Below the pieces are notes generated by a model that saw only the letters and a list, made by a program, of their open reading frames with translations, had not been told where the DNA came from and did no database searches. A stretch of DNA of 64,000 nucleotides from the NCBI GenBank assembly GCA_000091205.1, contig AP006502.2. One strand, given 5' to 3'. Each line of letters starts with the position of its first letter. Within the stretch, counting starts at the first letter, position 1. Origin of the DNA: Cyanidioschyzon merolae. Lineage: Eukaryota. Positions 3,320 to 56,700 of the stretch are shown in pieces. The position numbers and the translations under genes were made by a program.

Positions 3320-5480
3320 TAGTCTGGAGGTCTATTCTCCAGTACCGCACATCTCCTTACATTGATAGCGGCGTTCAAGTCTCGGTTCACAAACTCCACC
3401 TGTTTCGTGCCGTTAGGAGTTTACTCACTAATGCGAGTAGCCCACGCACTTTCGCTAGCCTTTCCATGTGCTCGTCTGTCAGCGGTCCGTACTTTGCTAT
3501 ATCCTCGGGGCTCCCCGGACACTTTTCCATCTAGACCCTCTGAAGTGTACACCGCAGTTCATGGTGTGTATACGATGTTCGAAACTCATCTACCGGGTTC
3601 GTAACGAAACGCCGTGCGCACTCCTTGTACACCCTCGTCGTTGGAGCTGGTGTACACCCTTTTTGGGTCTTCCATCGCCCTGCTCGGTATGCTACTACTA
3701 GCCTCTGATTTTCATCCTCCTTCAAGGCGCTCAACTCATTGAAAAAATTCGCGAACGCCCGCTGCTTTCCACAGTATAGATTCATACGCAAACGAGCCCA
3801 TCTGGGCATTGTATACTCCTCCCACAGCGCATCCCAATGCGCAACACGAACTTCCATGAATTTCCGAAAAGCTTTAAAGTCTGCTTCTCGGCTCGTCACC
3901 TCGCTCGTGGCTTCCAGGTGATCCTTCATTCCTGCATCCCATGCAGAAATTTTCTTCCATGCATTCATTATACCGGATTCTCGGTAGTATCTCGCTCTCG
4001 AGATTCTCAAAAGACGCATGTCTTTTTTGACGTACGTTGCCGTCAGTCCCATCTTCGGCACGCTTCGGTGCTGCAATGGTGATGATATTCGTATTCCCCG
4101 GGTCCGCGCCAACGACAAAGTTGTTATCATGCACTTTTTGGGTCGCAGGACCCGCCTTCTTCTTTTCTTCATCCTTCGTCCCGCCAACCATAAAGGCGTT
4201 ATCCTGCACCTCCTGCATCACAGGATCCGCCTTCTTCTCATCTTCATCCTCCGTCACGCCAACGACAAGGTCGTTATCCTCCGCCTCCTGCGTCGCAGGA
4301 CCAGCCTCCTCCTTTTCTTCATCCTCCGTCACGGGCGCAGCCGAGGGCGGAACTGGACGATCTTTCTTCAACCGCCGGTAGTGTACACACAAGGCTACCC
4401 CATCGGTTTCGATCATCCCAGTGAATACCTTTTGCTAGCTCACTTTGAGTCGTTTGAAATCGAAGATATTCTTCCAGTACGTCTCCCTATTCTCACCGGT
4501 GAACTCTCTTCTCCTTACATCGAACTCTGAACTGATCTCCTTCATGATGCCATGAAGGACGCCGGAGTCGATAGTCCCAACATGTGACTTGATGTTTCAT
4601 AATGGATCGACGTTGAAGCGCTTCCCCATTAGGACAGCCTTCCGTCTCTCCGACTCCTCATTTTTTCCTCACGCAGCTTCACCTCTGCCTTGCATTCGAG
4701 TTCACGGTCCAAAAACACGAAATAGCGCAGGATGAGGCGATAGAATCTTTCCTTATCTTTTTCAACTCGGATATCTTGTCTGTTGGATTGACCAGCCCCA
4801 AGATCGCACGGTGCTCTTGTATAGCCGCACGGGTCACAGAAGCTTCATTCCTGCTCCTGCGTGACGTCTTCTTGTAGACGAATCTGAGTTCCTGTTTATG
4901 ATGGCGATCTTTTGGGACGCCATCGATAATGGCCCATATCGCCCTGCGAGACAGGCCAGCCTAGAGTGCAAAGACGGAGCGTATCATGAAACGATCGAGC
5001 TTCATGGTCATATGGTTCTTCAAGTTCGTGATGTACTTCATCGCCCCGTAGGTTTAAATATTCGAGTCACCCCTGTGTCGAGCACCGTCAAAGCAGGATT
5101 TGGCGTAATTTTAGTGGAGTGCATGTGCTCGCTCATCTCTCCTCAACGTATACCCTGTGCTAGCCATCGGGTCACGATTAAAAGTCTTGTCGGAATGTTC
5201 GTATGGAACCTCGACTTCTATGATGCCCGTCGTGTCGCGATACATCTTCCTGGCCATATGCATCATTCCTCAAACAGCCTTTTGCAATACTCATTTAGTA
5301 ACACGCGACTCGGTTTTTGATGGCCTCTTGCAACTTTTCCTTGTATGCATCCTTGATATGGCGTGGAAGATAGGCTTTCGTTACCATTTTGTCGTACTGT
5401 CGTCTTTCTTGCAGCATTCGACGTGGGGCCTCCCCCTTTCGGTCCTTCTTCTTCTTTTCCTGGTCTTCTGGACTCGGCAC
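3320..5480 (-). mobile_element. Degenerate TnpB/Fanzor-like RuvC-nuclease element, copy A (frameshifted relic)
   Basis: On the minus strand, ORF 3874..4416 contains the RuvC-I-like motif [19 protein letters not shown] (GxDxG) near 4100. ORF 3531..4187, in another frame, ends with a TSQ-like VDEFRTSYTHHELRCTLQRV. A third frame at 3363-3400 encodes the RuvC-III motif FVNRDLNAAINVRR. A possible N-terminal remnant ORF lies at 5295..5480. The domain order is intact but three or more frameshifts and stops are present. Confidence 0.5.
4128..4330. repeat. 3 x ~75-bp tandem duplication inside copy A
   Basis: The nucleotide repeat ...cgcaggacc(a/c)gcc(t)tcttc(t)tttcttcatcct(t/c)cgtc(a/c)cgccaac(g/c)a(c/t)aaag(g/t)(c/t)gttatc... 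occurs three times. It translates on the minus strand to [25 protein letters not shown] / [25 protein letters not shown] / [18 protein letters not shown]. Confidence 0.8.
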
Positions 5481-5639
5481 TGATTTCTGTTTTTTTTTCT
5501 GGCAGCCGGCGACCCTGGCCCTACAGGATCGTCGACCTGCTTTTTCATAACTTTCCTTTTTTTAGTTGTTTTGAAAAAGAACGCTCTTTGAACCCTTCTG
5601 TTGTATACTGCGAAAAAGCGCTTTACTAGACTTGTTTGA

Positions 5640-7640
5640 GGTGTGAAACGCAATCGAACTGAAAGACTGTACTTTGCTATGACTCCAACGGAAATCCAAC
5701 TTCTACAGCTGAACAACACACTACTGATCAAGATCACGGTTCCCTTCAACGGCGGCATGTGCGTCGTGTCTCATGCCTGCCTGATATCCCAGGTGCGCTC
5801 ACTGACCGCGATGCATGCACCGCGCGAGACGCTAGACCCATCGATGAAGGACACGTGTCCGACACCCCGCATTGGCACATGCGTGCTCTCACCGGCGCTC
5901 TGCGGCACACGCGGCAGCGGGTAGTTTCAGAAAAAAGAGAAAGCGGACACTCCTCCGCGGATGATCTGAGCTTACAGACTTTCAGTTCTATTTCGTTTCG
6001 CCCCCGCTGCAGTGTATGTTAAGACGTCGAAATAACTGTGCAACTTACCGTATATATCGTTGGCAAATTGTCTGCAGGATATATTCATTACTGAACAGCT
6101 CATGGAGGACTGCGTTCATCCTTGAGGTCAGTCGCACAATAATACGCAGATGGTTGATGAACACTGCAAGTAACAAATATATGCGCACCGCACCAAAAAC
6201 TGGTATTCTCAGCGCATGCTTGCCGTCAATGGTAGAAAACGATCCGCTGATAACCTTACGGAAACTTAGTGCAACGAAAGTGGTCACAACGGGCGTCTCT
6301 GTTTCCCAACACCTTGTCCATACTGTCCTGAAAACACCGGGATACAGGCGCAAAAGAAGACTCTATTCATTCACGGCCATCCTCTGCCAAAATCGCAATG
6401 ACAGCATTCCGAGGACTGAGCGATCGGTATGAGGCACAGGGTCGTCGGGTTTGCTATTCCATTCGTTGAGACTTTCTTCGGACGAAACGGTCCGAGTATA
6501 TATGGGTATTCGCGGAGCGGGGCCCCCATCGTAAATAGGATCGAAATCGAAGAGAACGAGGACATCTTCATCAGTCTTAGCTGTAGTGGATTCATTTGAC
6601 GGCCTCAGTTTCGCTCCTGCGGAAGGCACATACAACAGAACCCTCTTCGCCGGATCATTGAAGACTTTTCTCAGACGTCTGGTGAGGTCCTTCGATTCCA
6701 CAACGTTGCATTTCACCATTACCCTTGCATTCGAGTTTTACCGAATCTTTCGGGATAGAGCTGCTTTCTATTCCCCCGTGCGCTCCTTGATTCAACCCCA
6801 TCGAGGCCGCGTTTTGTATCGTGAAACGTCATGGTCGCTCCACTGGGCAGATCTCCGACGAGTTCGCCGTACCGTGACACACCGGGGGCGCATTTCGTCT
6901 TTCTTCCACACGTCCTTCTCTGTCCAAGAAAATTCTCACCGTAGTGCATCATGAAGTGTGTTCGTTTTGAAGAAATACAATATCCAAGAGATGAGCTGGG
7001 GTGTACACTCCAGAACGTCGAGATGGAGAGAGGCCAGGGAAGCGCTTCGGCGATAGAAGAGCACGAAGAGCTGGCAGAGCAGCAAACGGCACAGAGAGAA
7101 CGTGTTCGAGGAATCTTTGCATTCATGCGTTCAACGAGAGGTAATAAACGCATGGAGTCCGTGAACCAAGACTTCAACGCCGTCATCCATATCAAACGAT
7201 GCGTGGTGCGGATGACGAGATGCGCGGACCTGACACGATCCATCTTTATGGGCCAGCCTCTCAGGCTCAACGTGTACAAAGAGAAATTGAAATCGATAGC
7301 AGGGGTCCGGTCGTTAAAGACTGGGAGGCATCTGCGCGTCGTTATTCATTTACCCTCCATAATTGTGAAACATTTTGTCTTTCACCGACTCTACAGAAGA
7401 CGGCAATGGACTTGGGCTTGTGTCCCCGAAACGATCGATTGCAGTGAAGCATGTGGCTCCGCTTTGCACCAAGGCGACATAGACTGATAGAAATATCTGG
7501 ATGAGTTCCCAATCTTTGGTTTTTTCGGGTTCTTATTGCATCATGGACGACATCGCGCACCGCAAATCCTCGATTCACTGGAAAAGTGAGCGCTTGCGTG
7601 TGCAGCTGACAACGCACTCGCATACGGGATTGTACAGAAG
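5640..7640 (+). mobile_element. Degenerate TnpB/Fanzor-like element, copy B (head-to-head with copy A)
   Basis: Plus strand carries the RuvC-I-like motif SSSVLAVVDSFDGLSFAPAEGTYN at about 6565-6630 (ORF 6586..6954). ORF 6951..7487 carries PRDELGCTLQNV, homologous to copy A's HHELRCTLQRV, and a degenerate RuvC-III VNQDFNAVIHIKR at about 7161-7200. Its tail ...FMGQPLRLNVYKEKLKSIAGVRS is homologous to copy G's ...FMGQPLRVEVYEEKLKSIPCNRS. A fragment of the family's conserved RuvC-II-like block lies at 7539-7630. Confidence 0.5.
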
Positions 7641-8197
7641 AAGCGCGCCATAGCACGGTGCGACACCGGCGAAGTAGATTGCATCTATCCCTCTGGACCC
7701 TTCAACGGCATACACCAAGCTATAAAGCAAGCGTTTTCGTGCTTCAGGGCGACACCGGTATTACGCAATGTGGTAGACGCATAGGCATATCTCACGAGAG
7801 TCAGGTGTCACGGTTGCGAGGCGCTCAGCGAGGCTGTGTACCTAGAACTTGAAACAGTCCTGCGAAGCGTAGGTCGCAACTCTCGCATCTGCATGGAATG
7901 CACCAACGACTGACAGAAGCGGCGAAATCGGGACCTGAACGCTTCTATCCATTTCCTTTCGACAACGAACAACGGAACTGGAGGCAAGGAATACCCCAAT
8001 ACATTTAAAAACGTAGATGAAACAGTGGAAAAAGAGACCAGTTGAAGAAAAAGCTCCCAATGACTGGTATTGATGATCGTAGGAAAACCCGTAAACACTG
8101 GAGTGTATGCCGCAGTCAGCAAAACGGACCCTTTCCAGGGTCGTCTGACATGACAGCATCTGGAGAATCCACGAATACGCAGCTGCAGCAGAGGCAA

Positions 8198-11486: not shown

Positions 11487-11599
11487 GTCCGTTTTGGTGC
11501 ATATCGTTTCGTTCAGGTGCGTACCGGGACCGGCCGCCTGCTATCGGTGTCGGTTCGTTGATCTGCGCTTATTTCGCGCATTAGAGGCCTGTCCCACGA

Positions 11600-12720
11600 A
11601 GGCTGGATCGTGTCAGCGACTTGGGTCTCGTCTCCAGCACACCGCATATCGTGTGATATGGATGGCGGCGTTAAAGTCTCGGTTCACGAGATCCTTGCGC
11701 GCATTGATTCTGGTGGAACGCGCCAATGCTAGCATTGGTCGAACTCGTGCCCACAGTGCCACTTCAGTCTCGTCATCGCTCCGTCAGAGGCAGACACCCT
11801 TTCTGGTCAACTTCTCCTTTTTCTTCGTCTTCTTCTTCATCACTTGCTCTGCGTCGCTCAACAGTCGGCGAGAAGAGGATTTTTTCGATTTTCTTCGGCG
11901 GTTGGTGGTGACGGCTCTCCAGGATCCTCGACCTGCGTACCAATATCATTCAGTTGGAATTTTCGTTTCTTCAAATGAATGCACTTGTTTATGCCCCTAG
12001 GCGAGGTCCTTCCCGTATCGAAAAGCACTTGCTGAAGGAAGACGAAATGTGCCCCATCATGTGACAATGTGGAGGACGCTTCAGCGATTCGCCGAATAGA
12101 GCGATCCTTACTTTTCACGATAGAAAGCACTCCTTCGATTGTGCTGAATCACCGAAATGTACGGAGGAATGGGAAGCAGCTCTGGCCCTATAGAATCGGG
12201 AAACGCTAGAACGCAAGTGGAATGGTGAAATACCACAATATCCAACAGAAAGACGTCTTCAGACCTCAGAGGAAAGTCTTCAACGAATTGACAAAGAGGT
12301 TGGTGATGTTGTACGCGCCTTCTCTACGTGCGCAACTGAGGCTGCCAAGTGAATCCACTGCACCCAGAACAGACGATGATGTCCGAATTCTCTCCGAGTC
12401 CGATCGTACATACAACGCGTTCCTTCTCCGCGAAGATTCATAGACCCTCTGATCGTCTCGTCCGAGGCAATTCTCATCCATCTTAGAAACAAACAGACGT
12501 CCCTGCGTTCCATACCTATCGCAACGTTGCAGGAACGCTTTAGGTGCAATATCGGTGCAAGATGGCCGTGCTTGAAACTGGACTTTTTGCGACTGTATCC
12601 CAGAGGTTTCAGGACCATACGAACAAGCAGTTGAGAAACAGAGGCACCTGTGGTGGCTTCTATCGTCGCTTTTTGCTTTCCATAAGTTTATGGACAGGTC
12701 GACTTCTACCATCGACCGCA
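11600..12720 (-). mobile_element. Degenerate TnpB/Fanzor-like element, copy C
   Basis: Minus ORF 12266..12721 carries the RuvC-I-like motif SERIRTSSSVLGAVDSLGSLSCARREGAYNITNLFVNSLKTFL, homologous to copy B. The minus strand at about 11645-11700 encodes ARKDLVNRDFNAAIHITRYAVCWRR (RuvC-III). An N-terminal remnant may extend to about 13400. Confidence 0.45.
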
Positions 12721-14421
12721 AGCACGCTTCGAGTGCAAATACTTCACTCTTTCAGTGTTCCTGAACCATCTGGGTCCTGTAGTATGACTAACATGGGTGA
12801 GTAATGGAGTCCTCCTTGCACTGCTCACTAAACAATACGTATCCTACAGGCAATTCGTATACAATCTATACCGTAAAGTTCCATCTTCATTTCGATCTCT
12901 TGCTATTTACCGCAGCAGGGGAGTGAAACAAATTTGAGTTGAAACCCATAATCGGTGCCGCATTCGGGGCAGCCTTGACGGCGACGCGGCATCCTAGTAG
13001 AGTAGGATCTATCGACGGCAAGCGAGCGAGCAAGCGAACTACTCCGTGCTATGCATGCCGTGAGGTGTCCAAGTACCGCCAGCCGGCGGTCAACACCTGC
13101 GGTACAAATAACACTGCCGCTTGACGGATGCTTCTCTGGTTGCTGATGCCCGAAGCGCATTCGGGTGTCCCTGGTCCATGGAAACGAGCTGTCGAGGGGA
13201 AACATGGTCGGTGAGCGTGCATACTGGTAACACTGACGGGCAATGTGTCGCGCGTCATACGCTCATCTGCATCAACGTCAGGTCTCGAGGAGGAAAGGCC
13301 AGGTCCGCGCGTATGCACTGTTCAGGGATTTCCGTTCCATCATTCCGATAACGATGCGCGCATGTCCAGCAGTTTCGAAAGGATGCGCATCACGCCAAGA
13401 ATGCCGCAGGCCAAAAATTTCGGTACGCATTGCTGCCGCCACTAGAGAGCCAGTTCACCGGGACGTATGTGCTAATGCACTTGTGCGGCAGGCACACGCG
13501 TTTCCGCACTTGACAGGATCTGACGCTGACGACTGCAGACGCTTCTCCTGCCCGCGGTATCACTTGAGCGCTACTTCGTCCTCGGCTCAGTTGCGAGGAG
13601 GCGAACGCATGCGCCTCTCCAGATGAGTAGCCTTTTCGTCGCTAGAAAAGAATCCCATGTACCACTGGAGTATTGTGGGGCGTGACGCTCTGAGATGTTA
13701 TCCTTGGCAATTTACAAAGTACCCACTCGAGCAAGAAATGTACGTCAAAAAACATGCGAGGCGCAGTGAACGAGGCGTGCCATTTTTCATCGTACATTAG
13801 CTACATGCGACTCGTGTGGGCGCGATGTGCAGGAAACACCTTACGGACGCTTATCATGAAATTCTCGTGACTCTCACTAGTCTCGACGAACAATCCAAAT
13901 CGTGATCCAATCGAAGCAGCAGCAGTTAGGTTTTCACTCCAAGTCGCGGGATCCGGTGATTGCTCTTCACAAGACGGCCACGCTAAGGTAGCGCACATTT
14001 TGGTTTATGGAGGATCCATGCATTGACCTAGGAGCTCTTGCATCCGCAATCGTTTTCAGCGTCCAAGGAAGCGATCCTGAATCCACTCCAGCCTCCACGA
14101 CGTACTACGATCCCCTGCCAACGCTCTTCGTCGGGAATGATCGTGCAATGCTACCAGCAGCCAGCCGGGTGCCGAACCAAACCTAGGTGCCTCCTTCGAT
14201 ACCCGATATGCCGCTCACGCACGAACGCAGGCTTACAGAGCAGCGCTCAGGCGTCTTGGGGGTACCAACTCGACGCTGTTGCCGCGCATATGACGACGTA
14301 CTGAATGCCCAACGCATCGAATGCGAAGAGGCTCCCATGCAGCCATGCATGCCGCACTGATCGGGCTATCGTCACGCGTTCAGCACCGACTCTTTTTATC
14401 GAATGGATCCAATCTCACATG

Positions 14422-15870: not shown

Positions 15871-15873
<3 letters not shown>

Positions 15874-15905
<32 letters not shown>

Positions 15906-15913
15906 ACAGCAGT
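15874..15913. repeat. (CAG)n/(CAA) triplet repeat
   Basis: cagcagcagcagcagcagcagcaacagcagcaacagcag, located in a GC-rich spacer full of overlapping spurious ORFs. Confidence 0.85.
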
Positions 15914-16199
15914 AGCGGTGGTAAACGTTGCACGGCGCGATGCGCCCCTGGTTACCCACATCGCTGCGTATGTCATGCTTCATTTCGTGTCTCATAGCGG
16001 ATGCTACGGCCGTGTTCGATTCGAATGCGACGATGAACGATTCGCGCTGATCCTGTCGTTCGCTCATTTTCCGAACTATTTTAGATGTTCAGCCTCGACA
16101 TGCAAGGTGCAGCAGTCAGAGCGTACGGCTAGGCGCCTTGTATAAGGATACTCGGTCGTCGTTCGGGGTAGCTCCTTTGGATCAATGCCGGTTGGATTC

Positions 16200-17330
16200 G
16201 GTACGTCACTGGTATCCATGTGATTCGCAAAGACATTGAACGAGGGTTCGCCAAACTAGCCGATATGATTATCCGATAAATATGCCCAAGCCTCCATGAT
16301 TCTCCTTTTGTCATATGCAGCGTGCTGAATCCACGCATGCTTCAAGTCTTCGACCGTTGTGTTTCGAAGAAATTCGCAGGGCGCAGCAGCTGGCGCCGCT
16401 GGATTGACGACGTAAAATACAACTGCAGGTCGTCTGCTAGCGACTTTTCCATAAGCTCACACCCGAAAGTTCACGGAACCGTTCCCGTCAAATCATCGAT
16501 ACTGATCCACGGACGAGGCCTCCTCTGTTTGTGGCCGTAAATAACATGTCAGTCTACAACAAGCTGATACCTCGAACGAAATATGCTCCCAGAGGCTCCC
16601 GTCTCTCCTGTTACGATGGCAATGGATTTTGAGCTCGGACTTGCGTCATTGGAGCAATCGCGTTGAGCGGAAAGTGCGTCACCGCTTTGCACAAAAGGAG
16701 CCTATACGCATCGAAATTGCCGGACTTGTTCTCGAGACAGGATTTTCCTTCCAGTACTTGCTTCATCATGGACAACATGGCTTCTTCGGATCCTCTGTAG
16801 AATGGAACACGTTGGGCATAATTCTACAGCAGACAGCGTGCTCGCCGAGGGCATCACCCAGAAGAATCATGTTATGGTCGGATATTGTAAAGTGCGTGGA
16901 AACGGAGGAGAGCATTTCGGAGAGCCTCCTGTGTCAGTCAGGGGCATCTGCCGAGCGATAAAGCAAGCGTTCACGCGCCACCCGTCGACGCTGGAATTAG
17001 AAGATGTGATGGACATATGGAAACGCTTGACCACAGTCACCTGTGACCACTGCAAAGCGTGTACCGAGGCGGAATATTAAGAAGATAGACATGTCGAGCG
17101 AGGCTTCGGTCGCAACTTCCGCCTTTGCACGAAATTCATCGACAACGTCCGAAAGTAGTGAAATCAGAGCGTTCACACCGCCGCCAGCTCCCTGCAAATG
17201 CTGACGACGGATCTAAAGAAACAGTAGAAACAGGCGCATTCGTAGCCAGAGATCACAAGGACCTAAAGGAAGCAGTCGAAGAAAAAGCTTACAACGGCTG
17301 ATGTTGATAACAATGTTAAGAGAACCAGTG
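16200..17330 (+). mobile_element. Degenerate TnpB/Fanzor-like element, copy D (subfamily 2)
   Basis: ORF 16629..16961 (RHRFAQK..GFSFQYLLHH..EESISESL..ER*) is homologous at nucleotide and protein level to copy E. ORF 16802..17080 ends ...ELEDVMDIWKRLTTVTCDHCKACTEAEY, a TSQ-like motif followed by CxxC. A degenerate RuvC-III ADVDNNVKR lies at about 17300. Multiple frames are involved. Confidence 0.45.
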
Positions 17331-17466
17331 TTTCATGTGTATGCCCAAGTCAGGTAAGTTGAGCCTTTCCATTTGCTATCGACATTTCGCGTTGCCACTG
17401 GATGCATACGCATACGCGGCGCTGTGCAGGTGCCCAACACCGCAGGAGAACTCGAAACGCCGCCCG

Positions 17467-18095
17467 CATCCAATCGATTTGGGGAAAGCGCCGGCCAATA
17501 TAAAAGACTGCATAATTCAAGAAAAAGCATCCAATCGATTCGGGGAGCAACGACGGCCAATGTAAAAGACTGCATAATTCAAGAAAAAGCATCCAATCGA
17601 TTCGGGGAGCAACGCCGGGCAATATAAAAGACTGCATAATTCAAGAAAAAGCATCCAATCGATTCGGGGAGCAACGACGGCCAATGTAAAAGACTGCATA
17701 ATTCAAGAAAAAGCATCCAATCGATTCGGGGAGCAACGCCGGCCAATATAAAAGACTGCATAATAAAAGACTGCATAATAAAAGACTGCATAATTCAAGA
17801 AAAAGCATCCAATCGATTCGGGGTGCAACGCCGGGCAATGTAAAAGACTGCATAATTCAAGAAAAAGCATCCAATCGATTCGGGGTGCAACGCCGGGCAA
17901 TGTAAAAGACTGCATAATTCAAGAAAAAGCATCCAATCGATTCGGGGTGCAACGACGGCCAATGTAAAAGACTGCATAATAAAAGACTGCATAATTCAAG
18001 AAAAAGCATCCAATCGATTCGGGGTGCAACGCCGGGCAATGTAAAAGACTGCATAATTCAAGAAAAAGCATCCAATCGATTCGGGGTGCAACGCG
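17467..18095. repeat. 62-bp minisatellite, ~10 tandem units
   Basis: The unit is catccaatcgattcgggg(a/t)gcaacg(a/c)cgg(c/g)caat(g/a)taaaagactgcataattcaagaaaaag. Two units carry extra 15-bp taaaagactgcataa sub-repeats. Unit variants alternate. The array produces a ladder of spurious MQSF... minus-strand ORFs. Confidence 0.95.
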
Positions 18096-18195
18096 CACGG
18101 GCACCTCATACACAGATCCGCCGCCAGCGATTGATGCCGAGGCGCGTCTTCCGATCCTAGTCAACAGGCTTCCAGGGCTACGCGCTCTGCTACGA

Positions 18196-22362: not shown

Positions 22363-24351
22363 GTGGCGGCCTGCTGCATTCTAAAAGCGTCTGAAGGTGG
22401 CATGTCGGCGGTACACGACAAACAGCTGCCGGATGTCGGAGCGCCAGACAGGGAGCGTTGCTCGGAACCGGCCACTTTGAGCGTTTCGCAGCCGGAGGTA
22501 GTCTCCGAGAAGCAGTCTGCCGGTGAAAAGCGTGAACACGTTGTAGACGTGGCTATGAGCGCTGTGAACGAGGCGCGGAAGCTGGCTAGAATTGAGTTTC
22601 GGCGCTCTTTGCAGAGAACACTGGAAGAGCTCGCTGAGGAGGTGCCTATCTTTGGGCGCCTGCTGGCCTTTGAGCGAGCGCTAGACATGCGCGTCGCCAG
22701 GGCTCTTCAGCGGCGTGACGAGCGAGCAGCGGCAGCGCTGCTTCTTGAAGCCGCTGACCGAGGCGACCAGCTGGAGCAGGCAAGGCTGCCGGGGAACGCT
22801 CCGGCTGCTTCGAACAGTGGCTTGGCGTTCCCGTCTGTAGCGCAGTATCCTCGGAGAAGGTGTACCTTTCGTCTTTTTGTCTACAATACTTTTGAGGGCC
22901 AGGAGCCAGCGACGGGCGATGGAGCAGAAGAACGCACCCCCAGCTGGGTGCTTCGTATCCACGGCCACGTTCTCAACGGACCGCAGGTCGCAGAGCTCGC
23001 GTTCACTTCAGTCTTTGAGCGAGTTGTGATTGCAGTAGACCCAGATAACCATTTTCAGCAGGCTGAAACGATCGAATGGAGGCAGTCGCTGGTACCTGGC
23101 TCGCAGGTCCTCGCTGGCTCTAGATTAGAGAGCGCTTTCCCCAACGCGGATGCGCCGAGCGCTGGACCTGAGGCGGCACAAGCTGCCTGCAACCAAGGCC
23201 AACCGCGTCCTGGGCAGCGCACTGAAGCTCAACACCCAGCGGCAGCAGCAGCAGCAGCAGCAGCAACCGCAGCGGACGACTCCATAGCAGATGGGATCGA
23301 ACTGCGCCGCTGCGGACAGCAGCCGGTTCCAGTAACGATTCTGCTGTACCTGCGACGTTATCCACCAGTCTATCAGTTGTCGCCGGAGCTTGTGGCGCTT
23401 TTAGGGGTTGAGCAAGACACGCTCGCCGGAGTACTAACGACGTTCTGGCATTATATCCGGCGCCAGGGTTTGATGCACCCGGAGCGGCCGGGGTTTGTTT
23501 TGCTGAATGAAGAACTGAGGCGCATTTTCGGATGGAGCAAACACGAGCCCACCTCTGCGCATGAGTCACACCAGGAGAACGAGCGCTCCCCGAATCTACC
23601 TAGACCCGAACGAACTGAGGAGCCTATCGACGACGCGTTCGAGGGCTCGGTGCCGATGATGCCGCTTCACGTCATTGGAGAGCGTTTGCGCGAGCATTTG
23701 GGGCCTGCGCCTCCCCTTGAGCTGCACTACACGATTCAGTTTGATTCACCAGTCGAGCATGATTGCTACGATATCGAAATCGAATGGCCAGATGCCTTGC
23801 CGATGGACGTCTGCACCGAGCGAACTGGAGCGGAGATCGCATCTTCCGGGCATGTTTCGGAAAAGAATGCAACAGCGAAACCTCTTTCAGCACCGGGTTC
23901 TGCGGGTCTCGTCGGCAGCGAGCGACCATCCGAAGATACCGACAAATCGGGGGACCAACGCGCTCCGCTGCACTTTGGAAGATGTTCGCTATATGCAGGA
24001 AGCATTGAAATCCAGAAACTGCAGCAGCAATTCGAAGAGACGCTCGAACGCATCCATGCTGCGTATTTACGACGTGATTTTTATAGGAGTTTCGCCAAGG
24101 CCCCCGCAGCGTTCCTGCGTGACCTCATTGTCAGCCAGGCACGGGACGCTCGCCTCGTTCGAGGCCAGTCGGGCCGAACCATCGAAGAAGAGCGTCGTTC
24201 AGGGCTGTACTACCAGCAGTGGCTCCACGAGGCGATTCCACGGTACCTGTGGCGAACGTTGCGCTCGCGGGAGCACCAGCATCGCCAAGTCCAATACGCG
24301 GCAAGCGAGGCGACCAAAGCAGCATCTCCATCGGCATCTCCAACAACCTAA
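22363..24351 (+). CDS. SWIB/MDM2-domain protein, SWI/SNF BAF60/SNF12-like subunit
   Basis: The SWIB domain is PVTILLYLRRYPPVYQLSPELVALLGVEQDTLAGVLTTFWHYIRRQGLMHPERPGFVLLNEELRRIFGW. The protein has the long coiled/low-complexity flanks typical of BAF60. It includes a (CAG)8-encoded poly-Ala run. Confidence 0.6.
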   Translation: MAACCILKASEGGMSAVHDKQLPDVGAPDRERCSEPATLSVSQPEVVSEKQSAGEKREHVVDVAMSAVNEARKLARIEFRRSLQRTLEELAEEVPIFGRLLAFERALDMRVARALQRRDERAAAALLLEAADRGDQLEQARLPGNAPAASNSGLAFPSVAQYPRRRCTFRLFVYNTFEGQEPATGDGAEERTPSWVLRIHGHVLNGPQVAELAFTSVFERVVIAVDPDNHFQQAETIEWRQSLVPGSQVLAGSRLESAFPNADAPSAGPEAAQAACNQGQPRPGQRTEAQHPAAAAAAAAATAADDSIADGIELRRCGQQPVPVTILLYLRRYPPVYQLSPELVALLGVEQDTLAGVLTTFWHYIRRQGLMHPERPGFVLLNEELRRIFGWSKHEPTSAHESHQENERSPNLPRPERTEEPIDDAFEGSVPMMPLHVIGERLREHLGPAPPLELHYTIQFDSPVEHDCYDIEIEWPDALPMDVCTERTGAEIASSGHVSEKNATAKPLSAPGSAGLVGSERPSEDTDKSGDQRAPLHFGRCSLYAGSIEIQKLQQQFEETLERIHAAYLRRDFYRSFAKAPAAFLRDLIVSQARDARLVRGQSGRTIEEERRSGLYYQQWLHEAIPRYLWRTLRSREHQHRQVQYAASEATKAASPSASPTT

Positions 24352-28135: not shown

Positions 28136-28399
28136 CCGAAAGCTCCTGGCCAACGAACACGGGTACCGTAACAGCGAGAACCGCGCAGGCGTTGCGTGCC
28201 GAAAGGGCCAGATCAAAACGAGAGCGCTGAAAACTGCGCACTCCATATCTTTCGATCGATTTTCCGGAGCTTTCATGAGATATACAGCCTCGACATTCCA
28301 AGTGCGACAATGAGTGATTACGGATTCATGCACAATTTTAGGATGCATGGTCTTTTTTTTCTGAGGTGACTCGTTCGATGCTTTGCCGTCCGAGTTTTT

Positions 28400-29400
28400 A
28401 CCATCACCGGAATCGAGGTGATTCGCAGCGCCAGCGATCGGTGATTCGTTAAATAACCGATACCATCACCGGGCTCATACGTACACGCCCTCATGCTCCT
28501 CGTTTCCTTGCGTGCAGTGTGCTCAAATCAAGCATTTTTCTAGATTTCGATCTTTCAGTTTTAAGGCAGCTCGTGGGTTCAGCAACTGATGTCGCCTCAT
28601 GAACGTTGAACAAACCTGACGTCATCCCTTGACGAGTTCCGCACGGACTCATGCCGAAACTTCGCTGAACTTTTCATGTGAAATAATCGATTCCGTTCGA
28701 GCGACAAGTCCTCCTCTCTTGTGGAAATCTATGAAACGGCATTCAGCGCAAGCATGGAACCCTTCACGGGATATGCTCCCAGGGGTGACCGTCTCTTCTA
28801 TTTGCGAGGCAATGGTTTCGAACTCTGACTTTAATCATCACGGAGATCGCTCGCAAAGGAGAACGCGTCATCGGTTCGCTGGAAAGAAGCGCTCACGGAT
28901 CGGAATATCTCGACTTGATCTTCAGCATGGATTTTGCTTCCGGTACTTGCTCCATCATCGACAATATCGCGTTCCACAAATCGTCTATCGAATAGAACAG
29001 TGTGCGCTTGCGTGTGCAGTGGACAGCGCACTCTCTGAGAAGATCATTCCGAAAAGCCCGCGATCACAGGATGCAGAATCGGGCGCGGAAACGAAGGAGA
29101 GCATACAGGAAAGCCTCCCGTACCCGTCAATAGCATGTACTGAGCGATGAACGACGCGTTCTCGAAGAATAGCGCAGCGCTCCAACGAGGAACTGTGGTG
29201 GACATGTACGAACACCTGACCACTACAAAGTATCACCGCGGCGAGGGACGCATTTGGGCTGTATCCAGAGAAGACCAACCTGGCGAGCGAAGTTTACACC
29301 ACAATGCCTGCCTGTGCATAAAATGCGGTGACAACAGCCGAATGCAGCGAAATCTGGACTTGAACGCAGCCATTAACGTCGTTTGACCGCTGACAATGAA
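28400..29400 (+). mobile_element. Degenerate TnpB/Fanzor-like element, copy E (subfamily 2)
   Basis: ORF 28629..29150 is homologous to copies D and F. The conserved block at 28954-29038 reads SIIDNIAFHKSSIE, which is RuvC-II-like, and contains an in-frame stop. ORF 29147..29386 reads TVVDMYEHLTTTKYH (TSQ-like) ... CLCIKCG (CxxC) ... RNLDLNAAINVV (RuvC-III at about 29351-29383). At least one frameshift lies between the parts. Confidence 0.5.
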
Positions 29401-29830
29401 GCTGCAGTGACAGGAATGACCGGTGCCCTTAAAGTCGTAGATAAGAGAGAGGAGAGGGAAGCAGTCGGAGAATAATCCCGAAAAAGGCTCGTGTTGATAT
29501 TCGTGGAAAGAGAACCCAACTTTATCATGCCCGCCCGAGTTGCGTTCGTATACCCATCCCATTTTACTCGTAGATGGGTACAGAAGCATCCGATTTGGAG
29601 AACAAGACCTTGTGTGCCGCAACATATTCATTCCACGTCAGTGGACACACACACAGAGGCATTTCTGCGCATTTTTCGATTCGAAGATGCGCGTCCTCGC
29701 AAACATTTGCAACAGTCTATTGTAAAGCGTACATAGCCTCAGCTCGCTGGCTAGCTCCACAGTAAAAGTGTCGGCGCATGGACGCTACTCTGAATGAAGC
29801 CACGTATACAGTTGGCTGGTTCGAGTTCCG

Positions 29831-31750: not shown

Positions 31751-32569
31751 AGCACCTTGGTGATTTCTTTGATAGTCGTGATGACGTCTCGACCGAAAGT
31801 TCAGCTTGGATTCCGTTTCGTACTGCTCAGTGCTGTGAGAGAGCAGCGCGGAACACCGGCACGACGTGTCAGAGCTACCGCCTACCTGCTTTTCAGGAAC
31901 GCTTCACCCTCGATTCCAAGCATTGAAGACGCAGAACGCTTGGAACCGCAGCGACATATGCACCGTGTATCCGGCGGTAAAGGCCGGCGGCTGTTAAAAG
32001 TCTCTATATCTGCGGCTATGCGCGTGAATGTTTTCGTGTAGCCAACTCGATGCAAACGCTCCAAGCCTTGGGCTTTGTGCGCCGCTCGCCTCCATCACAA
32101 GCCCACACCTTCCACAGTCGCATCTCGCGCTAGAAAGCCCGAAACTTCATGAAAGGACTACGGTCGCGCTTCGTCGTCTGTACCGTGACGTGCGCTTGCG
32201 CATCTGCGGCTCGCCATGTATGGGTTTTTTCGATGACAAAACGTTTAGATTGACCATGGATCCCAGAATTCGGGATGGATAATGGCTTTCGGGCAGAGCC
32301 TCCAAGATGAAGCACCTACCTTCAAGCTCCATTACCCATACCTCCTCTCGGATATACTGGTCGCTTCGTATGTTCTATAGTGCACCGAGTGCCTGTTTTG
32401 AGCACCCGCCTTGACGCTTATACCGCTAAAGCAGATGCCGCACGGAGACAGAACGGCTTTGCCATACCACTGAGGGCGTCGGCTCGAGCGGAGGCGCCAT
32501 GTACGTGTGCTGCACCTTCACGCGACACCATGCGTAAACCACGACGCTGGCATAGCGGAACCCAGCGTC

Positions 32570-42701: not shown

Positions 42702-44128
42702 TTTGGTCAGCGACCCTGCATGAGAGTCACACTGCTGCGAAGGGTGTTCTTTTTTGGACGAATATTTCCTCTGTTCTGTGGGTTCGGATGCGACGAGCGA
42801 GCTAATCAAGCACGCGATCGACGTACCGCATGCGAACAAAATGAACTGTTTCTTCATCGGGATGTAGTATACCGGAGAGCGCAAGTTTCTGTATTGGTGG
42901 TATCCTTCATACCGATGAGAGCATCGCCACCAGGGCGCCATTTGGGGCATCTGGATGATGCAAGGCTTCCAGGGTCGTTCCGAATTGCACGTGACTTTCC
43001 CATGGACTTGATGTCCGGAGCACGGTTTTAGCGCAATGTCCTGCACACGCTGGCAGCTGAGCTTCAACGTATCGATCCGGTATTGCAAGCAGGCCCAGTC
43101 GCAGAAAGCACGCCAAGGCTGGAACCGCTGCGCATGGAGCTATTCGCACCCTCTAACCGCTTCCCTCCAGGTATGATGCAGCCATTGGTACGAGGTCTTT
43201 CCAGGAACATTTCGCAGAAAGGCCCGGTCAACCGCATCACACGTGCCGGCCGCTCAGACGCGCGCGGGTACCTTCGCAGGCAATTTTGTCCCAGTTTGCA
43301 AGTCGCCAGCACAAGTGACCCCAAAGACAGCAGCTTCCCTATACTCGCTGTCACAGTGGCTTCTCCATGGTAAAACCCGTGGTTTGGCACGCAAGTTCCT
43401 CGGTAGCAGAGCATCTCAGTCTTTGAAAGCGGGTCTATCGCCGCGTTTGCAGTACGATCGCAACCACAAGAGCATCCAACGCAACACGCAAAAATCAGAA
43501 CGCTCGAAGCGATCCCACAACTCGAGCACGCACCTGCAGCTGCACCATGCCGAATCTGGACAGTGCTCGCATACCTGCACGCACAGAGCTGATACTGCAA
43601 TCCCGCCTTAAATTGACCCTATCTAACCGTTCGAGCTGAACCGAGTATGAGCTGTCCATAGGGAGCACGCATGCCGACACGTGTACGTCCTGGGCAGCAG
43701 CACAGATTTTTTCATTGACAAAACATTTACTTTGGCCAGCGTTCTCCGATTATGCGCATTTTTCTTTTATTTCTTCATGTTTTTTTTTCAGTGCGCGGTG
43801 AAGTATCCATCAAACACCCTGCCTCCAAGTTATATGACCCATACTTCTTCTCGGATATTCTGGTCGTTTCATACGTCCTATCGTGTGTGCCTAGTGCCTG
43901 CCGAAGGCGACAGAACGGCTTTTCTGTACCACACAGAGGGCGTCGGCTCAAGGGGCAGCACCGATGCATGCGCGCCCGGCGCGCGCGGCTCGACGAGCAC
44001 CGCCGAATCGCTCGGATGCCGTCTCCTGGACGCTTTCGCGGCAGGGCGACGCGTGTCAAGTGCGCAGCGTTCTGTGCGCGCGTTGCGACAAGCGCTTCAA
44101 GCGCTGATCAGAGAGCTCGCTTAGAAGC

Positions 44129-45850
44129 ATGTCGACGCTTGTGCTGGATGGACAACGGACTTCTGGACGGGACGTTCGCACACAGAATGTAAACGCTTGC
44201 CAGGCAGTGGCGAACGTTATAAAATCGTCGCTGGGCCCAGTCGGCCTCGATAAGATGCTCGTCAGCGAGATCGGTGACGTTACGGTGACGAATGACGGCG
44301 CAACGATTTTGAGCCTACTTGAAGTGAAGCATCCTGCTGCAAAGGTACTTGTCGATCTCGCCAAGCAGCAAGATGAGGAGGTTGGTGACGGAACGACGAC
44401 TGTCGTCGTGCTTGCTGCAGAGCTTCTGAAGCGAGGTAACGAACTCGTGAAAGCGGGTGTGCACCCGACTTCAATCATAGCCGGATACAAGCTCGCTGTG
44501 CGTGAAGCTTGCCGGTACATACGTGATCGGCTCGCTGTCCCGGTAGATCGTCTCGGAAGAGAGTGTCTTGTGAACGCTGCGAAGACCTCGCTCCAGAGCA
44601 AGGTACTCGGCGGCGAGGTCATTGAGCACTTTGCTGGACTGGCAGTCGATGCCGTCATGGCGGTGAAAACCCGACGCGACGACGGCGCGAACGCACATCG
44701 CTACCCGATCCAGTCCATCAATATTTTGAAGAGCCACGGGCGCGGTGTTCGCGAGTCGACGCTACTCGGTGGGTACGGATTGAATCTGACGAGAGCCTCG
44801 CGCCTCATGCCGGAGCGCGTCACCAACGCCCGCATTGCATGTCTTGATGTTGATTTGCGTCGCGCAAAGCTACAAATGGGAATTCAGATTCAGAGCGTGG
44901 ATCCGGCGGAGATCGAGAAGATGCAGCAGAAAGAGCTGGACATTACACGGGATCGCATCAACATGATACTGAAAGCGGGCGCGAACGTGATTTTGACCAC
45001 CAAAGGCATTGATGACGCTGCCCTGAAATATATCAGCGATGCGGGTGCGCTTGCCATTCGACGAGTCGCGCCTGCAGATTTGAAGCGCATTGCAAAGTGC
45101 ACGGGTGCAACGATCCAAACCGCCTTTGCGGATCTGACTGGCGAGGAGAGCTTCGACACCTCAGCACTGGGCCAAGCACAGGAAGTTGTCGAGGAAGTAG
45201 TCGCGGATTCGGCCTTCACCTTCATCCGCGGCTGCCGCGACTTCAAAGCCGCAACCATACTCCTTCGAGGACCAAATGAGTTTATGTTGGATGAAATGGA
45301 GCGATCCATACATGATGCGCTCTCAGCGGTTAGGCGAACGCTCGAATCGAACATGGTTGTTGCGGGCGGTGGTGCGACGGAAGCAGCGGTTTCCACTTTC
45401 CTCGAGAGTTTTGCTGCTGCGCTAGGATCGAAAGAACAGTTAGCCGTCGCTGAATTTTCCGATGCGCTCCTGGTGATTCCCAAGACGCTGGCGGTCAACG
45501 CAGCACTGGATGCGACAGACCTGGTCGCCAAGCTCCGAGCGGCACACTTTGCCGCTTTCGCCAGCAACGAAGGCACGCCTGCCATCAACGATACTGCGTC
45601 ACGAGATAACGCTCCAGTAGCAAATGGTGTCCCTAGCACCGACGCCATTCAGCGGAACGAGCTCAAGTTCTGCGGACTCGACCTCATCAAAGGCCGTGTA
45701 CGCAACAGCTTTACCGCAGGTGTACTCGAGCCTGCCATGAGCAAAATCAAGTCCCTGCAGTTCGCAACGGAGGCAGCCATCACGATTCTGCGCATTGATG
45801 ATTCCATCAAGATCACCGAAGCCACAGAACCCGAAGAGCCTTCCTACTGA
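44129..45850 (+). CDS. CCT1: T-complex protein 1 subunit alpha (CCT1/TCP-1 alpha)
   Basis: The 573-aa product is collinear with TCP1 over nearly its whole length: NVNACQAVANVIKSSLGPVGLDKMLV..GDVTVTNDGATILSLLEVKHPAAKVLVDLA..QDEEVGDGTTTVVVLAAELL ... ATEAAITILRIDDSIK. Confidence 0.95.
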   Translation: MSTLVLDGQRTSGRDVRTQNVNACQAVANVIKSSLGPVGLDKMLVSEIGDVTVTNDGATILSLLEVKHPAAKVLVDLAKQQDEEVGDGTTTVVVLAAELLKRGNELVKAGVHPTSIIAGYKLAVREACRYIRDRLAVPVDRLGRECLVNAAKTSLQSKVLGGEVIEHFAGLAVDAVMAVKTRRDDGANAHRYPIQSINILKSHGRGVRESTLLGGYGLNLTRASRLMPERVTNARIACLDVDLRRAKLQMGIQIQSVDPAEIEKMQQKELDITRDRINMILKAGANVILTTKGIDDAALKYISDAGALAIRRVAPADLKRIAKCTGATIQTAFADLTGEESFDTSALGQAQEVVEEVVADSAFTFIRGCRDFKAATILLRGPNEFMLDEMERSIHDALSAVRRTLESNMVVAGGGATEAAVSTFLESFAAALGSKEQLAVAEFSDALLVIPKTLAVNAALDATDLVAKLRAAHFAAFASNEGTPAINDTASRDNAPVANGVPSTDAIQRNELKFCGLDLIKGRVRNSFTAGVLEPAMSKIKSLQFATEAAITILRIDDSIKITEATEPEEPSY

Positions 45851-53230: not shown

Positions 53231-53508
53231 GAATGCCCAGCAACAGTCTCAAGCCTCCCCAGCCTGTCAAGGTGTCCCTTGAAAACGACGATATGGGGAT
53301 CCACGAACTAGCACGCAGTACGAGCTTCTGCTCACGCAGCAAACAGCCTCTGTCGGTCTAGGCAAACGCAGATATCAGGCAGAAGCACCCATAAAGCTCG
53401 GATTCTACACTAGAAATACGTGGGGTTCCACTTTCCATACGTACGGGCATCAGATGGCGGGCGTTGCGGACGGGCCGCACGAGTGCGGGCAACGCCCTGT
53501 ACGTGTCC

Positions 53509-54153: not shown

Positions 54154-54999
54154 GGCCTAGCGTTTGTGGAGGCCTGCAACGCACCCTGGACAATCACAGG
54201 CGCTTGGAAGCACGCCGCGACTAGCAGACAACACACGCCGATGCAGCGTTCTGGTCGAAGCTGGTTGAAGCGGGGCGTGCTCTGGGCCAGTGAGTGTACT
54301 TCGCTGCTGCCGCTGCTGCTAGAGGTTCGGGTGCTCCATTCCCCACCGAAGCGCTTGTCCTGAACGCGAATTCCCATGCAAACCTCGCAGCGTGAAGCAC
54401 AGTGGCTATAATAGCTTGTGGTTGGGTGCTTTCGCGTCGAAGGGCGCGTTCCGGGCGACCGCTGAGGTCTGTCGAAAAGGACACCAGCCCGTGGATGCCT
54501 GACAAAGAAGCGCTGCATCTATGCTCTGAATAGGGTTTCTGGTGTCCCCGAACGCTATAATGGTTGTCTCGCTGTTGTTCGTGTCATAGACAAAACGGCG
54601 AATACTGTGGATGCTGGTTGTGAGGTACAGGTCGTGACGCCTGCACGAGCGCGCGACGCTTCCTTACGATACCCGCTGTCTGGTTCCGAGCGCTCTGCAA
54701 CTGGCTATGGCGACTGTACCACGCTACCCACGGTTCCGTGCGATACCGGGTGTCTGATGCCAAGCGCTCTGCAACAGGCGATACGGCTGCTGCAACGGGC
54801 GCGAGACGGCAATGTCAGATGAGAAAGGAACGCTGAACTGCTCGAATAGTTCCTTCATTGCGATTGGTAACGCAGCTCCTATTAGGTTTACAGCCACGAG
54901 ATTCGAGGAATAGCTGTAAGGACATACGGATTCGTACTTAGGTTAAGGATTCTCGTTGGTTTCTCCGAGGTCGCTCATTCCAATCTATCCGTTGGAATT

Positions 55000-55700
55000 C
55001 GTTTCGTCACCGGAATCAAGGTGATTCGCGATGCCCACGAACAAGACTCCCTACAATAATGTGTTTTTTACTAAATTTGTACGTTGAAGCCTCCGCTCCT
55101 CTCAGCTCCTTTCGGATAGAACGCTCAGATGACGCATTTTTCAAGTGTTTGATCGTTCTGTTCAGCGGCAACTCGTAGGCACAGCCATGCGCACCACCGG
55201 AATGATGATGAAAGAAATCGATGTCGTTTCTTCTCGACTTGTTCACGAGTTCATGTTGAAAGTTCACTGAAAACGTCATCTCAAATCATCCATTCCGCTC
55301 AGAAGAGAAATCCTCCTCTGTGTCAATCGCCGAAACTACTTGCGACAGCTCAATGATAACTCGCACAAGATACGCCGAAAGCGGATTCCGCCTCCTCTCT
55401 TTGCACGGGAAAGCATTCCGGAGACGTACATTAGTCATCGCAGCGATTGCTTCTGGAGTAGTGAGCGTGATCACCTTGTATGAAGGGCGCGTAAACGGAT
55501 CGACCGTTCTCGACTCGACCTCTAGCCGGCATTTTTCTTACCATTCTTGTTCTATCGTGGATAACATTTCGTTCCACAAATCCTCTATCGAATTGGACGG
55601 CGTGCGCTTGCTCGTGCATCGGTCAGAACACTCGATGCAGAGAGCCCTGGAGAAGCCCGAGATCGTCACAGATCGACAATGAGTGCGAAAAATAAACAAA
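55000..55700 (+). mobile_element. Degenerate TnpB/Fanzor-like element, copy F (subfamily 2, 5' part)
   Basis: The 5' sequence caccggaatcaaggtgattcgc is shared with copy E (caccggaatcgaggtgattcgc). ORF 55320..55682 ends with the conserved RuvC-II-like block SIVDNISFHKSSIELDGVRLLVHRSEH at about 55552-55640. Confidence 0.45.
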
Positions 55701-56149
55701 ACACACTGAGAGAAGCTCTGTACACCCCGCCGGCGCTTCTATCAAGCGATGGGGCAAGCGTTGACGGGCTCTCACGTGGCCCTCCACAGATGACGTCTAT
55801 TGGGCAAATAGGAACACCTGCGCAAAATCAAGGAGCGTGGGTGCGAAACGCGCATCGAGACTTGATATAAAAGTAAAAAACGTTGCAAGCGAAGCCCAGA
55901 TTGCAGCTTTTGGCAGTGCATCGAATGCGTCGACACCAGCCGAAAGCAGCAAAATCGGGCCCTGAACGCGACTTTCAAAATCCTTCAACTGCGAACATCG
56001 GGAATAGAGTGAAACTAGAGACCAGCGTATACACAGACGGATATGAGAGAGCGGAAACGGAAGTAGTTGAGGAAAAACGCTCCGGAAAGCCACTCTTCAT
56101 GACCTTGGAAACAGACCCAACATTTTGAGTCTACATCCGAGGTCGGTGC

Positions 56150-56700
56150 GCGGATCGACCCATGCCTCGCTCCGCTTCCATTTCATTCATCGATTCTGCG
56201 ATTACGACGATAGCGTGTATGTCGATAAACCGACCTGCAGACGCTTCGCAACCTGTTTTGACCGGTTGCATGGTATCGATTTCAGCTTCTCCTCGTAGAC
56301 TTCGACCCGGAGAGGCTGCCCCATGAAGTTTGCTCGCGCCATCTCCGCAGGTGTCGTCCTCTGCTCCGTAAAACGTCTGATATTTATTGCAGCATTGACG
56401 TCTCGATTCACGAACTCCATGCGTTTTTTTGCATCTGGTCGAACTCACCTATGCAAGGATAGCGGAAACTCGCGCCACCTGTCTCGTCTTCGTCCTGATG
56501 ACGACGTACTTTTCTCACCTATGTTTGCTCTTCTTCTTAGATCCATGGTCGGCGAGAAGAGGATTATTTCCGTTACTTCTTCCAGCCGACGACACCGAGC
56601 CTCCAGACTCCTCTACCTAGATGTCCATCACTTTCCTGTTTTAATTCCAAAACGAACCCACGTGGAGCGCTTCTGTTATAAACCGCTAAAAAGCACTTGA
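56150..56700 (-). mobile_element. Degenerate TnpB/Fanzor-like element, copy G (3' part, tail-to-tail with copy F)
   Basis: Minus ORF 56202..56420 reads MEFVNRDVNAAINIRRFTEQRTTPAEMARANFMGQPLRVEVYEEKLKSIPCNRS, a RuvC-III motif plus a C-terminal tail homologous to copy B. An in-frame stop lies immediately upstream of this frame, and the Zn-finger region is in another frame. Confidence 0.5.

Follow-up and report, generated by a model that had tools for sequence, protein, structure and literature searches.

Decayed remnants of probable Fanzor1-carrying DNA transposons in a 64-kb window of the Cyanidioschyzon merolae genome

Fanzors were shown in 2023 to be RNA-guided nucleases. Here we describe degenerate Fanzor1 genes and gene fragments within 64,000 nucleotides (nt) of DNA from the red alga Cyanidioschyzon merolae (contig AP006502.2 of GenBank assembly GCA_000091205.1), the whole of which we refer to as the window. 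The closest described system comes from the same organism: CMe-1A, a Fanzor1 family of ~150 copies that are ~80% identical to a 3169-bp consensus encoding a 734-aa protein (Bao & Jurka 2013, Mob DNA 4:12, PMC3627910). Its describers called the family old, reported that some copies are intact and that there are no terminal inverted repeats (TIRs), left target-site duplications and class undetermined, and recognised the 5' 635 bp of the consensus as another repeat, TE-N2_CMe (PMC3627910). A second relevant element is the Mariner-Fanzor1 composite PUl-1 of Pythium ultimum, in which a DDE transposase gene is followed by a same-strand Fanzor1 gene and which has 24-bp TIRs and TA duplications (PMC3627910). 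An intact element would be expected to express Fanzor1 together with a guide RNA derived from its 3' end and to cut DNA beside a short motif (PMC10432273, PMC10530073), and such guided cutting presumably aids the persistence of the element. TnpB of the IS200/IS605 elements (OMEGA) belongs to the same superfamily; as in those elements, hairpins are found at the element ends here, and by analogy a guide RNA would be expected from the 3', or right, end. The elements in the window differ in being eukaryotic and much larger and in having an N-terminal helical region, and no TnpA was found with them.

An original prediction, made from the letters of the window, had placed seven degenerate TnpB/Fanzor-like loci (A to G) between positions 3320 and 56700. 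All 13 of the peptide strings that it quoted lie at the implied places and strands in the six-frame translation, and self-BLASTN bore out the nucleotide homology that it described within A/B/C/G and within D/E/F. All seven loci are present, but the list had left out an eighth, H, and three CMe-1A end fragments, and copy G runs beyond 56700 to about 57535 (Table 1). Taken as a whole, these loci are best explained, in our view with high probability, as decayed remnants of C. merolae DNA transposons that carried a Fanzor1 gene.

To place the copies relative to CMe-1A, we took the consensus and the CMe-1 protein sequence from the supplements of PMC3627910 and took a nucleotide identity of at least ~80% with the 3169-bp consensus as the threshold for membership. 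Copy A reaches 84-87% (blastn, window 5810-3148 against consensus 648-3153), the 5' part of copy G 80.6% (window 57535-56583 against consensus 1-951), and the fragment at 32231-32488 87%. By sequence identity, copy A belongs to the published family. It is collinear with the 734-aa protein, of which residues 12-729 are covered in five frames (tblastn), and differs from the published consensus in starting at position ~648 instead of 1. The 5' part of G and the three end fragments correspond to the TE-N2_CMe portion at the 5' side of the consensus. Upstream of its Fanzor unit copy A carries 96 nt (5811-5906) that are also found in metagenome loci L054, L066, L030, L009, L052 and L028.

Against the consensus coding sequence (CDS), copy A is 86.5% identical, and 7 frameshifting indels and 10 premature stops, as read from the sequence, inactivate it. 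Introns were considered as the source of its broken open reading frame (ORF) and rejected, because, set against the consensus, the reading frame shifts at indels of 1-2 nt, and there are also 10 in-frame stops. All copies in the window are pseudogenes, as the original prediction had stated in saying that no intact nuclease ORF exists there, and none of them can now make guided cuts. One further difference from the consensus is an in-frame expansion of 150 bp in the acidic linker upstream of RuvC-I, made up of insertions of 66 and 84 nt. It corresponds to a 75-bp (25-aa) repeat that is present once in the consensus, three times in copy A and up to five times in the homologue P0012, and whose number varies among homologues (P0002, P0011, P0012).

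A stitched translation of 3330-4700 (minus strand) found 307 homologous proteins, with E values down to 8e-192 and identities of 60-83%. Nearly all are JGI metagenome proteins, and their sole label is Pfam PF26935, DUF8286. A local Pfam search of the intact homologues gave no family match, a search of PDB sequences with a profile of 19 close relatives returned nothing relevant, and an AlphaFold2 (AF2) model built from a shallow alignment was unusable (mean predicted local distance difference test score, pLDDT, 37). An exhaustive profile search retrieved 1425 representative clusters (50% identity) at E<=1e-3, and an alignment of 47 full-length, diverse family members, A2, was informative. In A2 the D of DPG (D318 in P0008, an intact relative that is 77% identical), the G of AYGxG and the E of VDEFRT (E490) are invariant, and the aspartate of NRD is conserved in at least 90% of the sequences. 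The A2 profile matched the solved Fanzor1 proteins in the expected motif register (hmmsearch against PDB: PpFz 9cf0, E 9.2e-20; SpuFz 8gkh, 1.9e-11; GtFz 9cer, 8.5e-6), with VDEFRTS aligned to lvDEFRT and llDEYkT of PpFz and SpuFz, and PF07282 was matched by 8 of the 47 members. Modelled with A2, P0008 reached a pLDDT of 82.3, and the first seven Foldseek matches of this model were Fanzor1 chains (SpuFz, PpFz, GtFz) at probability 1.00, E 5e-12 to 2e-8 and a template modelling (TM) score of at most 0.61. Cas-phi, TnpB and Cas12f ranked after them, the last two weakly (E about 0.03).

The DPG motif and a relocated RuvC-II glutamate (Ealt) are signatures that define Fanzors (PMC10711439). Copy A carries both, together with the RuvC-III RD, and its conceptual protein is a member of the Fanzor1 clade of TnpB/Cas12 RuvC nucleases. 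The TnpB/Fanzor assignment of the original prediction is supported by these profile matches and by the AF2 model of the intact relative. Likeness to SpuFz1 (8GKH), PpFz (9CF0) and GtFz1 (9CER) lies in the DPG, the relocated glutamate, the RuvC-III RD and the fold (TM ~0.5-0.6), at a sequence identity of ~13-15%. A difference lies at the zinc-finger site between RuvC-II and RuvC-III, where those proteins have CxxC...CxxC and the CMe-1 lineage reads TSYTHHELGC...VRGLLALVS (window 3480-3590, minus strand). HHEL directly follows VDEFRTSYT in copy A, where the first CxxC is expected, and the wider-family consensus has a single Cys. The C4 zinc finger is thus missing from this lineage, and the clade of 1425 clusters is without the CxxC...CxxC of the solved proteins, yet retains the DPG, E and RD residues. 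A zinc finger is reported for 'many', not all, Fanzors (PMC10711439).

A hidden Markov model (HMM) of the Fanzor1 family, built from A2, was then applied to every one of the 2082 fragments of the six-frame translation of the window. Only A (many collinear pieces, best E 2e-59), B (7083-7274, E 3.5e-7), C (11628-11729, E 8.4e-5) and G (56274-56429, E 3.3e-10) were significant. The RuvC-III motif NRDxNAAxNI is present in A, C and G and degenerate in B (NQD), E (NLD), F (NRA) and H (NRD...NAS); the DPG part of the gene, RuvC-I, is missing from B, C, D, E, F, G and H. The RuvC-I motif that had been claimed for several copies therefore holds for A and fails for B and C, whose AVVDSFDGLS and GAVDSLGSLS lie inside a DDE_3 transposase pseudogene. 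The elements nonetheless derive from Fanzor1 genes, that is, from genes for RuvC nucleases of the TnpB/Cas12 superfamily.

Copies B, C and G retain only the last 0.2-0.35 kb of a Fanzor gene that is ~70% identical to CMe-1A. In B, positions 6981-7340 correspond to the last ~120 codons of a CMe-1-like Fanzor (71% to consensus 2737-3089, blastn), beginning within about 100 bp downstream of a ~1-kb part that matches PF13358, the DDE_3 domain of Tc1/mariner/IS630-type transposases (E 3.4e-7, 30.6 bits against a Pfam cut-off of 28.6); a match to HTH_Tnp_Tc3_2 is weak, and a database search with the stitched DDE_3 translation of B gave no match. Copy C, 72% identical to consensus 2809-2987, is collinear with B across the junction, and the two are 67-72% identical over their whole length in unrelated genomic contexts. 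The 3' part of copy G (56457-56228) is a B-type C-terminal fragment (70%) with a 3' end common to B, L064 and L074; the peptide FVNRDVNAAINIRR lies within the span of G at 56373-56414 (minus strand). Since B, C and the 3' part of G are only about 70% identical to CMe-1A (70-72%) and have a 3' end of their own, diverging from it at consensus ~3090, we regard them on sequence grounds as a sister subfamily, relatives of CMe-1A and not members of it.

D, E, F and H form one further family of ~1.33 kb, established by alignment and with limits set by a sliding-identity profile, which has no detectable nucleotide-level relationship to CMe-1A. H was recognised through a 77% match of 7524-7619 to 28938-29033 in the self-BLAST. 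The C-terminal piece of the majority consensus of the four copies matches PF07282 (E 1.4e-5) and positions 511-594 of the Fanzor1 HMM (26.4 bits), and the N-terminal piece matches DDE_3 at E 1.5e-5, its 25.3 bits being below the cut-off of 28.6. Pfam gave no match for the stitched single copy E, and a database search with the C-terminus of the consensus gave none either. The copies keep CDHC or CxKC remnants of a zinc finger, and what they retain is the C-terminal piece, equivalent to that of B/C/G, of an older Fanzor/TnpB-like gene with CxxC remnants. A tandem array lies at 17466-18103, beginning ~125 bp past the 3' end of copy D; its 62-bp unit, in ~10 copies that are 94-98% identical, overlaps a 177-aa minus-strand ORF and is unlike the transposon families studied here.

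In B to F and in H the Fanzor piece stands directly behind a DDE_3 transposase pseudogene, and the junction is common to copies. Our comparison set of 80 related metagenome loci includes what appears to be the undeleted arrangement: L064/L065 has a B-type DDE_3 region at 2053-2905, directly followed by a full-length, degenerate Fanzor gene on the same strand with the B-type 3' end. Removing about 1.9 kb from this arrangement gives copy B. L070 contains another B/C-type chimera, and a called protein, P0272, crosses the junction. From these comparisons we infer that B and C are internal-deletion derivatives of a composite transposon. The progenitors would have been elements with a DDE_3 transposase gene followed by a Fanzor1 gene, as in L064 and in PUl-1, an order implied for the progenitors of both B/C and D/E/F/H; internal deletions that spared both ends would have given rise to non-autonomous derivatives, which would then have spread. 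Every fragment would retain the 3' end of the Fanzor gene because that end adjoins the right end of the transposon, where Fanzor and TnpB guide RNAs are encoded, a region kept by internal deletion. The copies in the window differ from PUl-1 in being deletion derivatives and pseudogenes with no TIRs or TA duplications found, and neither the PUl-1 transposase nor its Fanzor C-terminus gave a significant match by tblastn.

Several observations weigh against deriving the loci from Fanzor1-carrying transposons. Where the homology of B, C, D, E and F ends we saw no TIRs, and TA target-site duplications, of the kind that the original prediction had proposed to look for, were found neither for B/C nor for D/E/F; mobilisation by the DDE_3 transposase is, therefore, a step that we infer. 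Decay of the ends may explain this result, which is weak negative evidence. L064 is itself degenerate, and CMe-1A itself lacks a DDE_3 gene and was not assigned to a class by Bao & Jurka (2013; PMC3627910). Tested singly against the Fanzor1 HMM, only E gave a match at all (E 0.5) and D and F gave none, so that the significance of D/E/F/H against the Fanzor profiles comes from their consensus only, and the frames of the DDE_3 part of that consensus were stitched by eye. The zinc-finger cysteines of characterised Fanzors are absent from the CMe-1 lineage, and for this reason activity even of intact copies is putative. Finally, an extended conserved RNA structure was not found in the 3' 420 nt: RNAalifold on 42 copies gave no extended covarying structure (covariation term -1.26), and on the 3' 105 nt it gave just short stems with little covariation.

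The chimeras could instead have arisen by repeated, independent nesting of mariner-like and Fanzor elements in intergenic 'TE islands' (TE, transposable element), followed by erosion. Transposon remnants are indeed clustered in the window: A, B and H adjoin at 3148-8100, and F and G stand tail-to-tail with a gap of ~100 bp in a cluster at 54800-57535. In L005, L012, L020, L062, L070 and L074 CMe-1A copies have D/E/F-type fragments no more than 3 kb away, the ORF of P0080 runs from the 3' end of CMe-1A into D-type sequence, and flank classes recur at CMe-1A 5' ends. Against this, the B/C junction is identical in position in two copies that are 67-72% identical and lie in unrelated contexts, the junction of D, E, F and H is likewise common to them, the same B/C-type chimera occurs in L070 and in P0272, and L064 has the gene order without the deletion. 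Since copies have their junction in common, each chimera must at a minimum have arisen once and then multiplied as a unit, and for the same reason nesting by itself is less likely than descent from composite elements; we consider it unlikely.

The ends of the Fanzor unit bear on another alternative. Many metagenome copies, like A, begin at consensus ~648-687 and end at 3145-3169, which suggests that a 2.5-kb Fanzor unit and the TE-N2-like 5' 650 bp are separable and that the published consensus joins two units. The 5' end of this unit has a small palindrome, GCGCTC-GGT-GAGCGC, with a variant GCGCG-N7-CGCGC. At the 3' side one hairpin follows the stop codon and has a single base pair that covaries, GC in 18 copies and CG in 15, and a terminal hairpin of 10-11 bp exists in two sequence versions that both pair (mean z-score -1.9; z<-2 in 51% of copies). 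Of about 40 distinct copies, most have the palindrome and the 3' hairpins; in copy A the terminal hairpin is degraded (z -0.3). The 3' hairpins may serve as signals at the transposon end or form the 3' stem of a guide RNA. The 5' flanks of the unit (loci L005-L084) fall into recurrent classes, namely TE-N2 in direct orientation, the TE-N2 end inverted with an A-run, and the 96-nt segment seen in copy A. These could reflect composite units, preferred targets or homing into repeats, and may in part be the same loci sampled in several metagenomes.

From such ends it could be argued that CMe-1-type Fanzor units were moved by a single-strand HUH-type mechanism (IS200/IS605-, Helitron2- or similar), with the DDE_3 association secondary. 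The 5' palindrome, the two 3' hairpins, of which the terminal one pairs in both versions, the covarying pair and the failure to detect TIRs are as this mechanism would have it, and Helitron2 elements that carry Fanzor1 have been described with a hairpin at each end (PMC3627910). No HUH or Rep gene was seen, however, in the window or beside the copies examined; a transcription terminator, or the 3' stem of a guide RNA, would account for the hairpins just as well, and the covariation may be a single inherited difference between subfamilies. By eye alone, a weak inverted similarity could be made out between the 3' end and the long-form 5' end (CGATGACAAAACGTTTAC), and we do not claim it as a TIR. 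We hold an HUH-type origin to be quite improbable.

The long-form terminus is a real shared end: the CMe-1A consensus 5' terminus CGATGACAAAACGTTTAC recurs at 32225-32248, 43707-43730 and 331-355 (minus strand) in the window and in L044, L047, L057 and others, almost always preceded by GATTTTTTT or TTTTTT. Viewed from the opposite strand this resembles an A-tailed element with variable 5' truncation, and TE-N2_CMe may be a separate, reversed, perhaps retroposon-like, element.

The original prediction had taken the loci for a previously unrecognised, recently expanded OMEGA/Fanzor-like family in an otherwise transposon-free region, with an active master copy perhaps still to be discovered. There are many copies in a small genome, the D/E/D residues are kept in the family consensus, and Bao & Jurka found some copies intact in the 10D genome (PMC3627910). 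Both 'unrecognised' and 'recent' are refuted: the consensus and protein were published in 2013, and the copies are 13-35% diverged. Their identity of 65-87% to one another or to the consensus argues, as does the judgement of Bao & Jurka that CMe-1A is old (PMC3627910), that they are old and not the product of a recent burst. A complete 734-aa ORF is present in none of the 80 related metagenome copies, the longest covering aa 133-731. The region is not free of other transposons either, given DDE_3 remnants in six of the eight loci and the TE-N2-like end fragments. This explanation is thus very improbable. That the motifs are chance resemblances in non-coding DNA, as the lack of significance of D, E and F taken singly might suggest, has next to no probability and is refuted for A, B, C and G, given the match of copy A to intact proteins at E 8e-192, the scores of B, C and G (E 1e-4 to 1e-10) in the six-frame scan, which picked out no unrelated region, and the significance of the D/E/F/H consensus against two independent profiles.

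Table 1. Fanzor-related loci, motifs and element ends in the window (positions are those of the window)
Feature	Position	Strand	Description	Evidence
Third 5'-end fragment	230-348	minus	Same variant subfamily as 43713-43953	Self-BLAST 230-354 vs 43832-43707, 82.5%; terminus motif
Copy A	3148-5906	minus	Full-length, inactivated copy of the CMe-1A Fanzor unit (consensus 648-3153) with a 96-nt 5' extension	
Copy A, CDS remnant	about 5548-3191	minus		
Copy A, RuvC-III motif	3358-3393	minus	FVNRDLNAAINV	HMM positions 573-599, E 5.5e-11
Copy A, VDEFRTSYT	3567-3593	minus	Carries the relocated RuvC-II glutamate (Ealt)	
Copy A, RuvC-I motif	4066-4116	minus	Fanzor 'DPG' signature (GADPG)	Six-frame translation
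Copy A, internal repeat	4107-4333	minus	75-bp unit, three copies	Tandem Repeats Finder
Copy B	5978-7400	plus	Chimera: DDE_3 transposase pseudogene (~5978-6950), then Fanzor C-terminal part and own 3' tail	
Locus H	7450-8100	plus	D/E/F-type element, only its 3' 650 bp; carries CMEC...RNRDLNASIH	Four-way alignment with D, E, F
Copy C	11540-12946	minus	Chimera as B: DDE_3 pseudogene and Fanzor C-terminal fragment	
Copy D	16000-17340	plus	DDE_3-like N-terminal part and Fanzor/TnpB-like RuvC-II/zinc-finger/RuvC-III remnant, including CDHC	
Copy E	28190-29530	plus	Carries VVDMYEHLTTTKYH...CIKCG...RNLDLNAAINV	
Solo 5'-end fragment	32231-32488	plus	CMe-1A consensus 1-255 (TE-N2_CMe-like), preceded by TTTTTT	blastn 87%; terminus alignment
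Second solo 5'-end fragment	43713-43953	plus	Variant subfamily, stops at consensus ~255	blastn; terminus alignment
Copy F	54800-56130	plus	Carries CIEC...NRALNATFKIL	
Copy G	56228-57535	minus	Internally deleted; 5' part and B-type 3' part	

The window has a G+C content of 50-59% and long ORFs without introns. The products of the ORFs are eukaryotic housekeeping and plastid-related proteins (KRI1, NMD3, TCP-1, a RETICULATA-like protein, and a 4-alpha-glucanotransferase with a starch-binding domain). The TCP-1 alpha ORF at 44129-45850 is identical to the protein of C. merolae strain 10D (BAM83196.1/XP_005539232.1), and by this sequence identity the window is C. merolae nuclear DNA. Self-BLASTN of the window joins the regions at 3.3-7.6, 11.6-12.9, 16.5-17.0, 28.5-29.2 and 55.1-57.4 kb as divergent dispersed repeats of 65-82% identity. 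A short match of CAG/CAA type, coding for poly-Gln, between the unrelated regions 15872-15912 and 23237-23273 is of low complexity and probably trivial. A 909-aa ATG ORF at 58395-61124 has no Pfam domain at E<=0.001, and tRNA and Rfam scans of the whole window gave zero matches.

The novelty that the original prediction implied is not borne out, since CMe-1A, the main family, has been in the literature since 2013 together with its consensus and protein (PMC3627910). What the 2013 description does not contain, as far as we have checked, is a joint reading that we put forward tentatively. In it, Fanzor1 genes of the Cyanidioschyzon lineage would have travelled in composite DDE_3 transposons, of which B/C and D/E/F/H, two multi-copy families of 1.3-1.4 kb, would be non-autonomous derivatives by internal deletion, keeping the 5' part of the transposase and the 3' end of the Fanzor gene with the guide-RNA and right-end region; the CMe-1 clade (>1400 clusters at 50% identity) would be zinc-finger-less with a conserved D/E/D triad; and its 2.5-kb unit, with hairpin-bearing ends, would have been joined to TE-N2_CMe in the 3.2-kb consensus. 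The composite DDE_3-Fanzor architecture, the clade without zinc-finger cysteines and the 3' terminal hairpins are modest additions that need confirmation across the whole genome.

C. merolae Fanzor1 has been catalogued since 2013, and as a discovery these loci carry little weight. The window illustrates how Fanzor transposons decay in a very compact eukaryotic genome, where only the 3' part, with the guide-RNA region and right end, survives, fused to transposase remnants. If the composite architecture and the zinc-finger-less D/E/D clade hold true, they would be a modest refinement of the classification of Fanzor1, and would make this lineage worth testing for activity.

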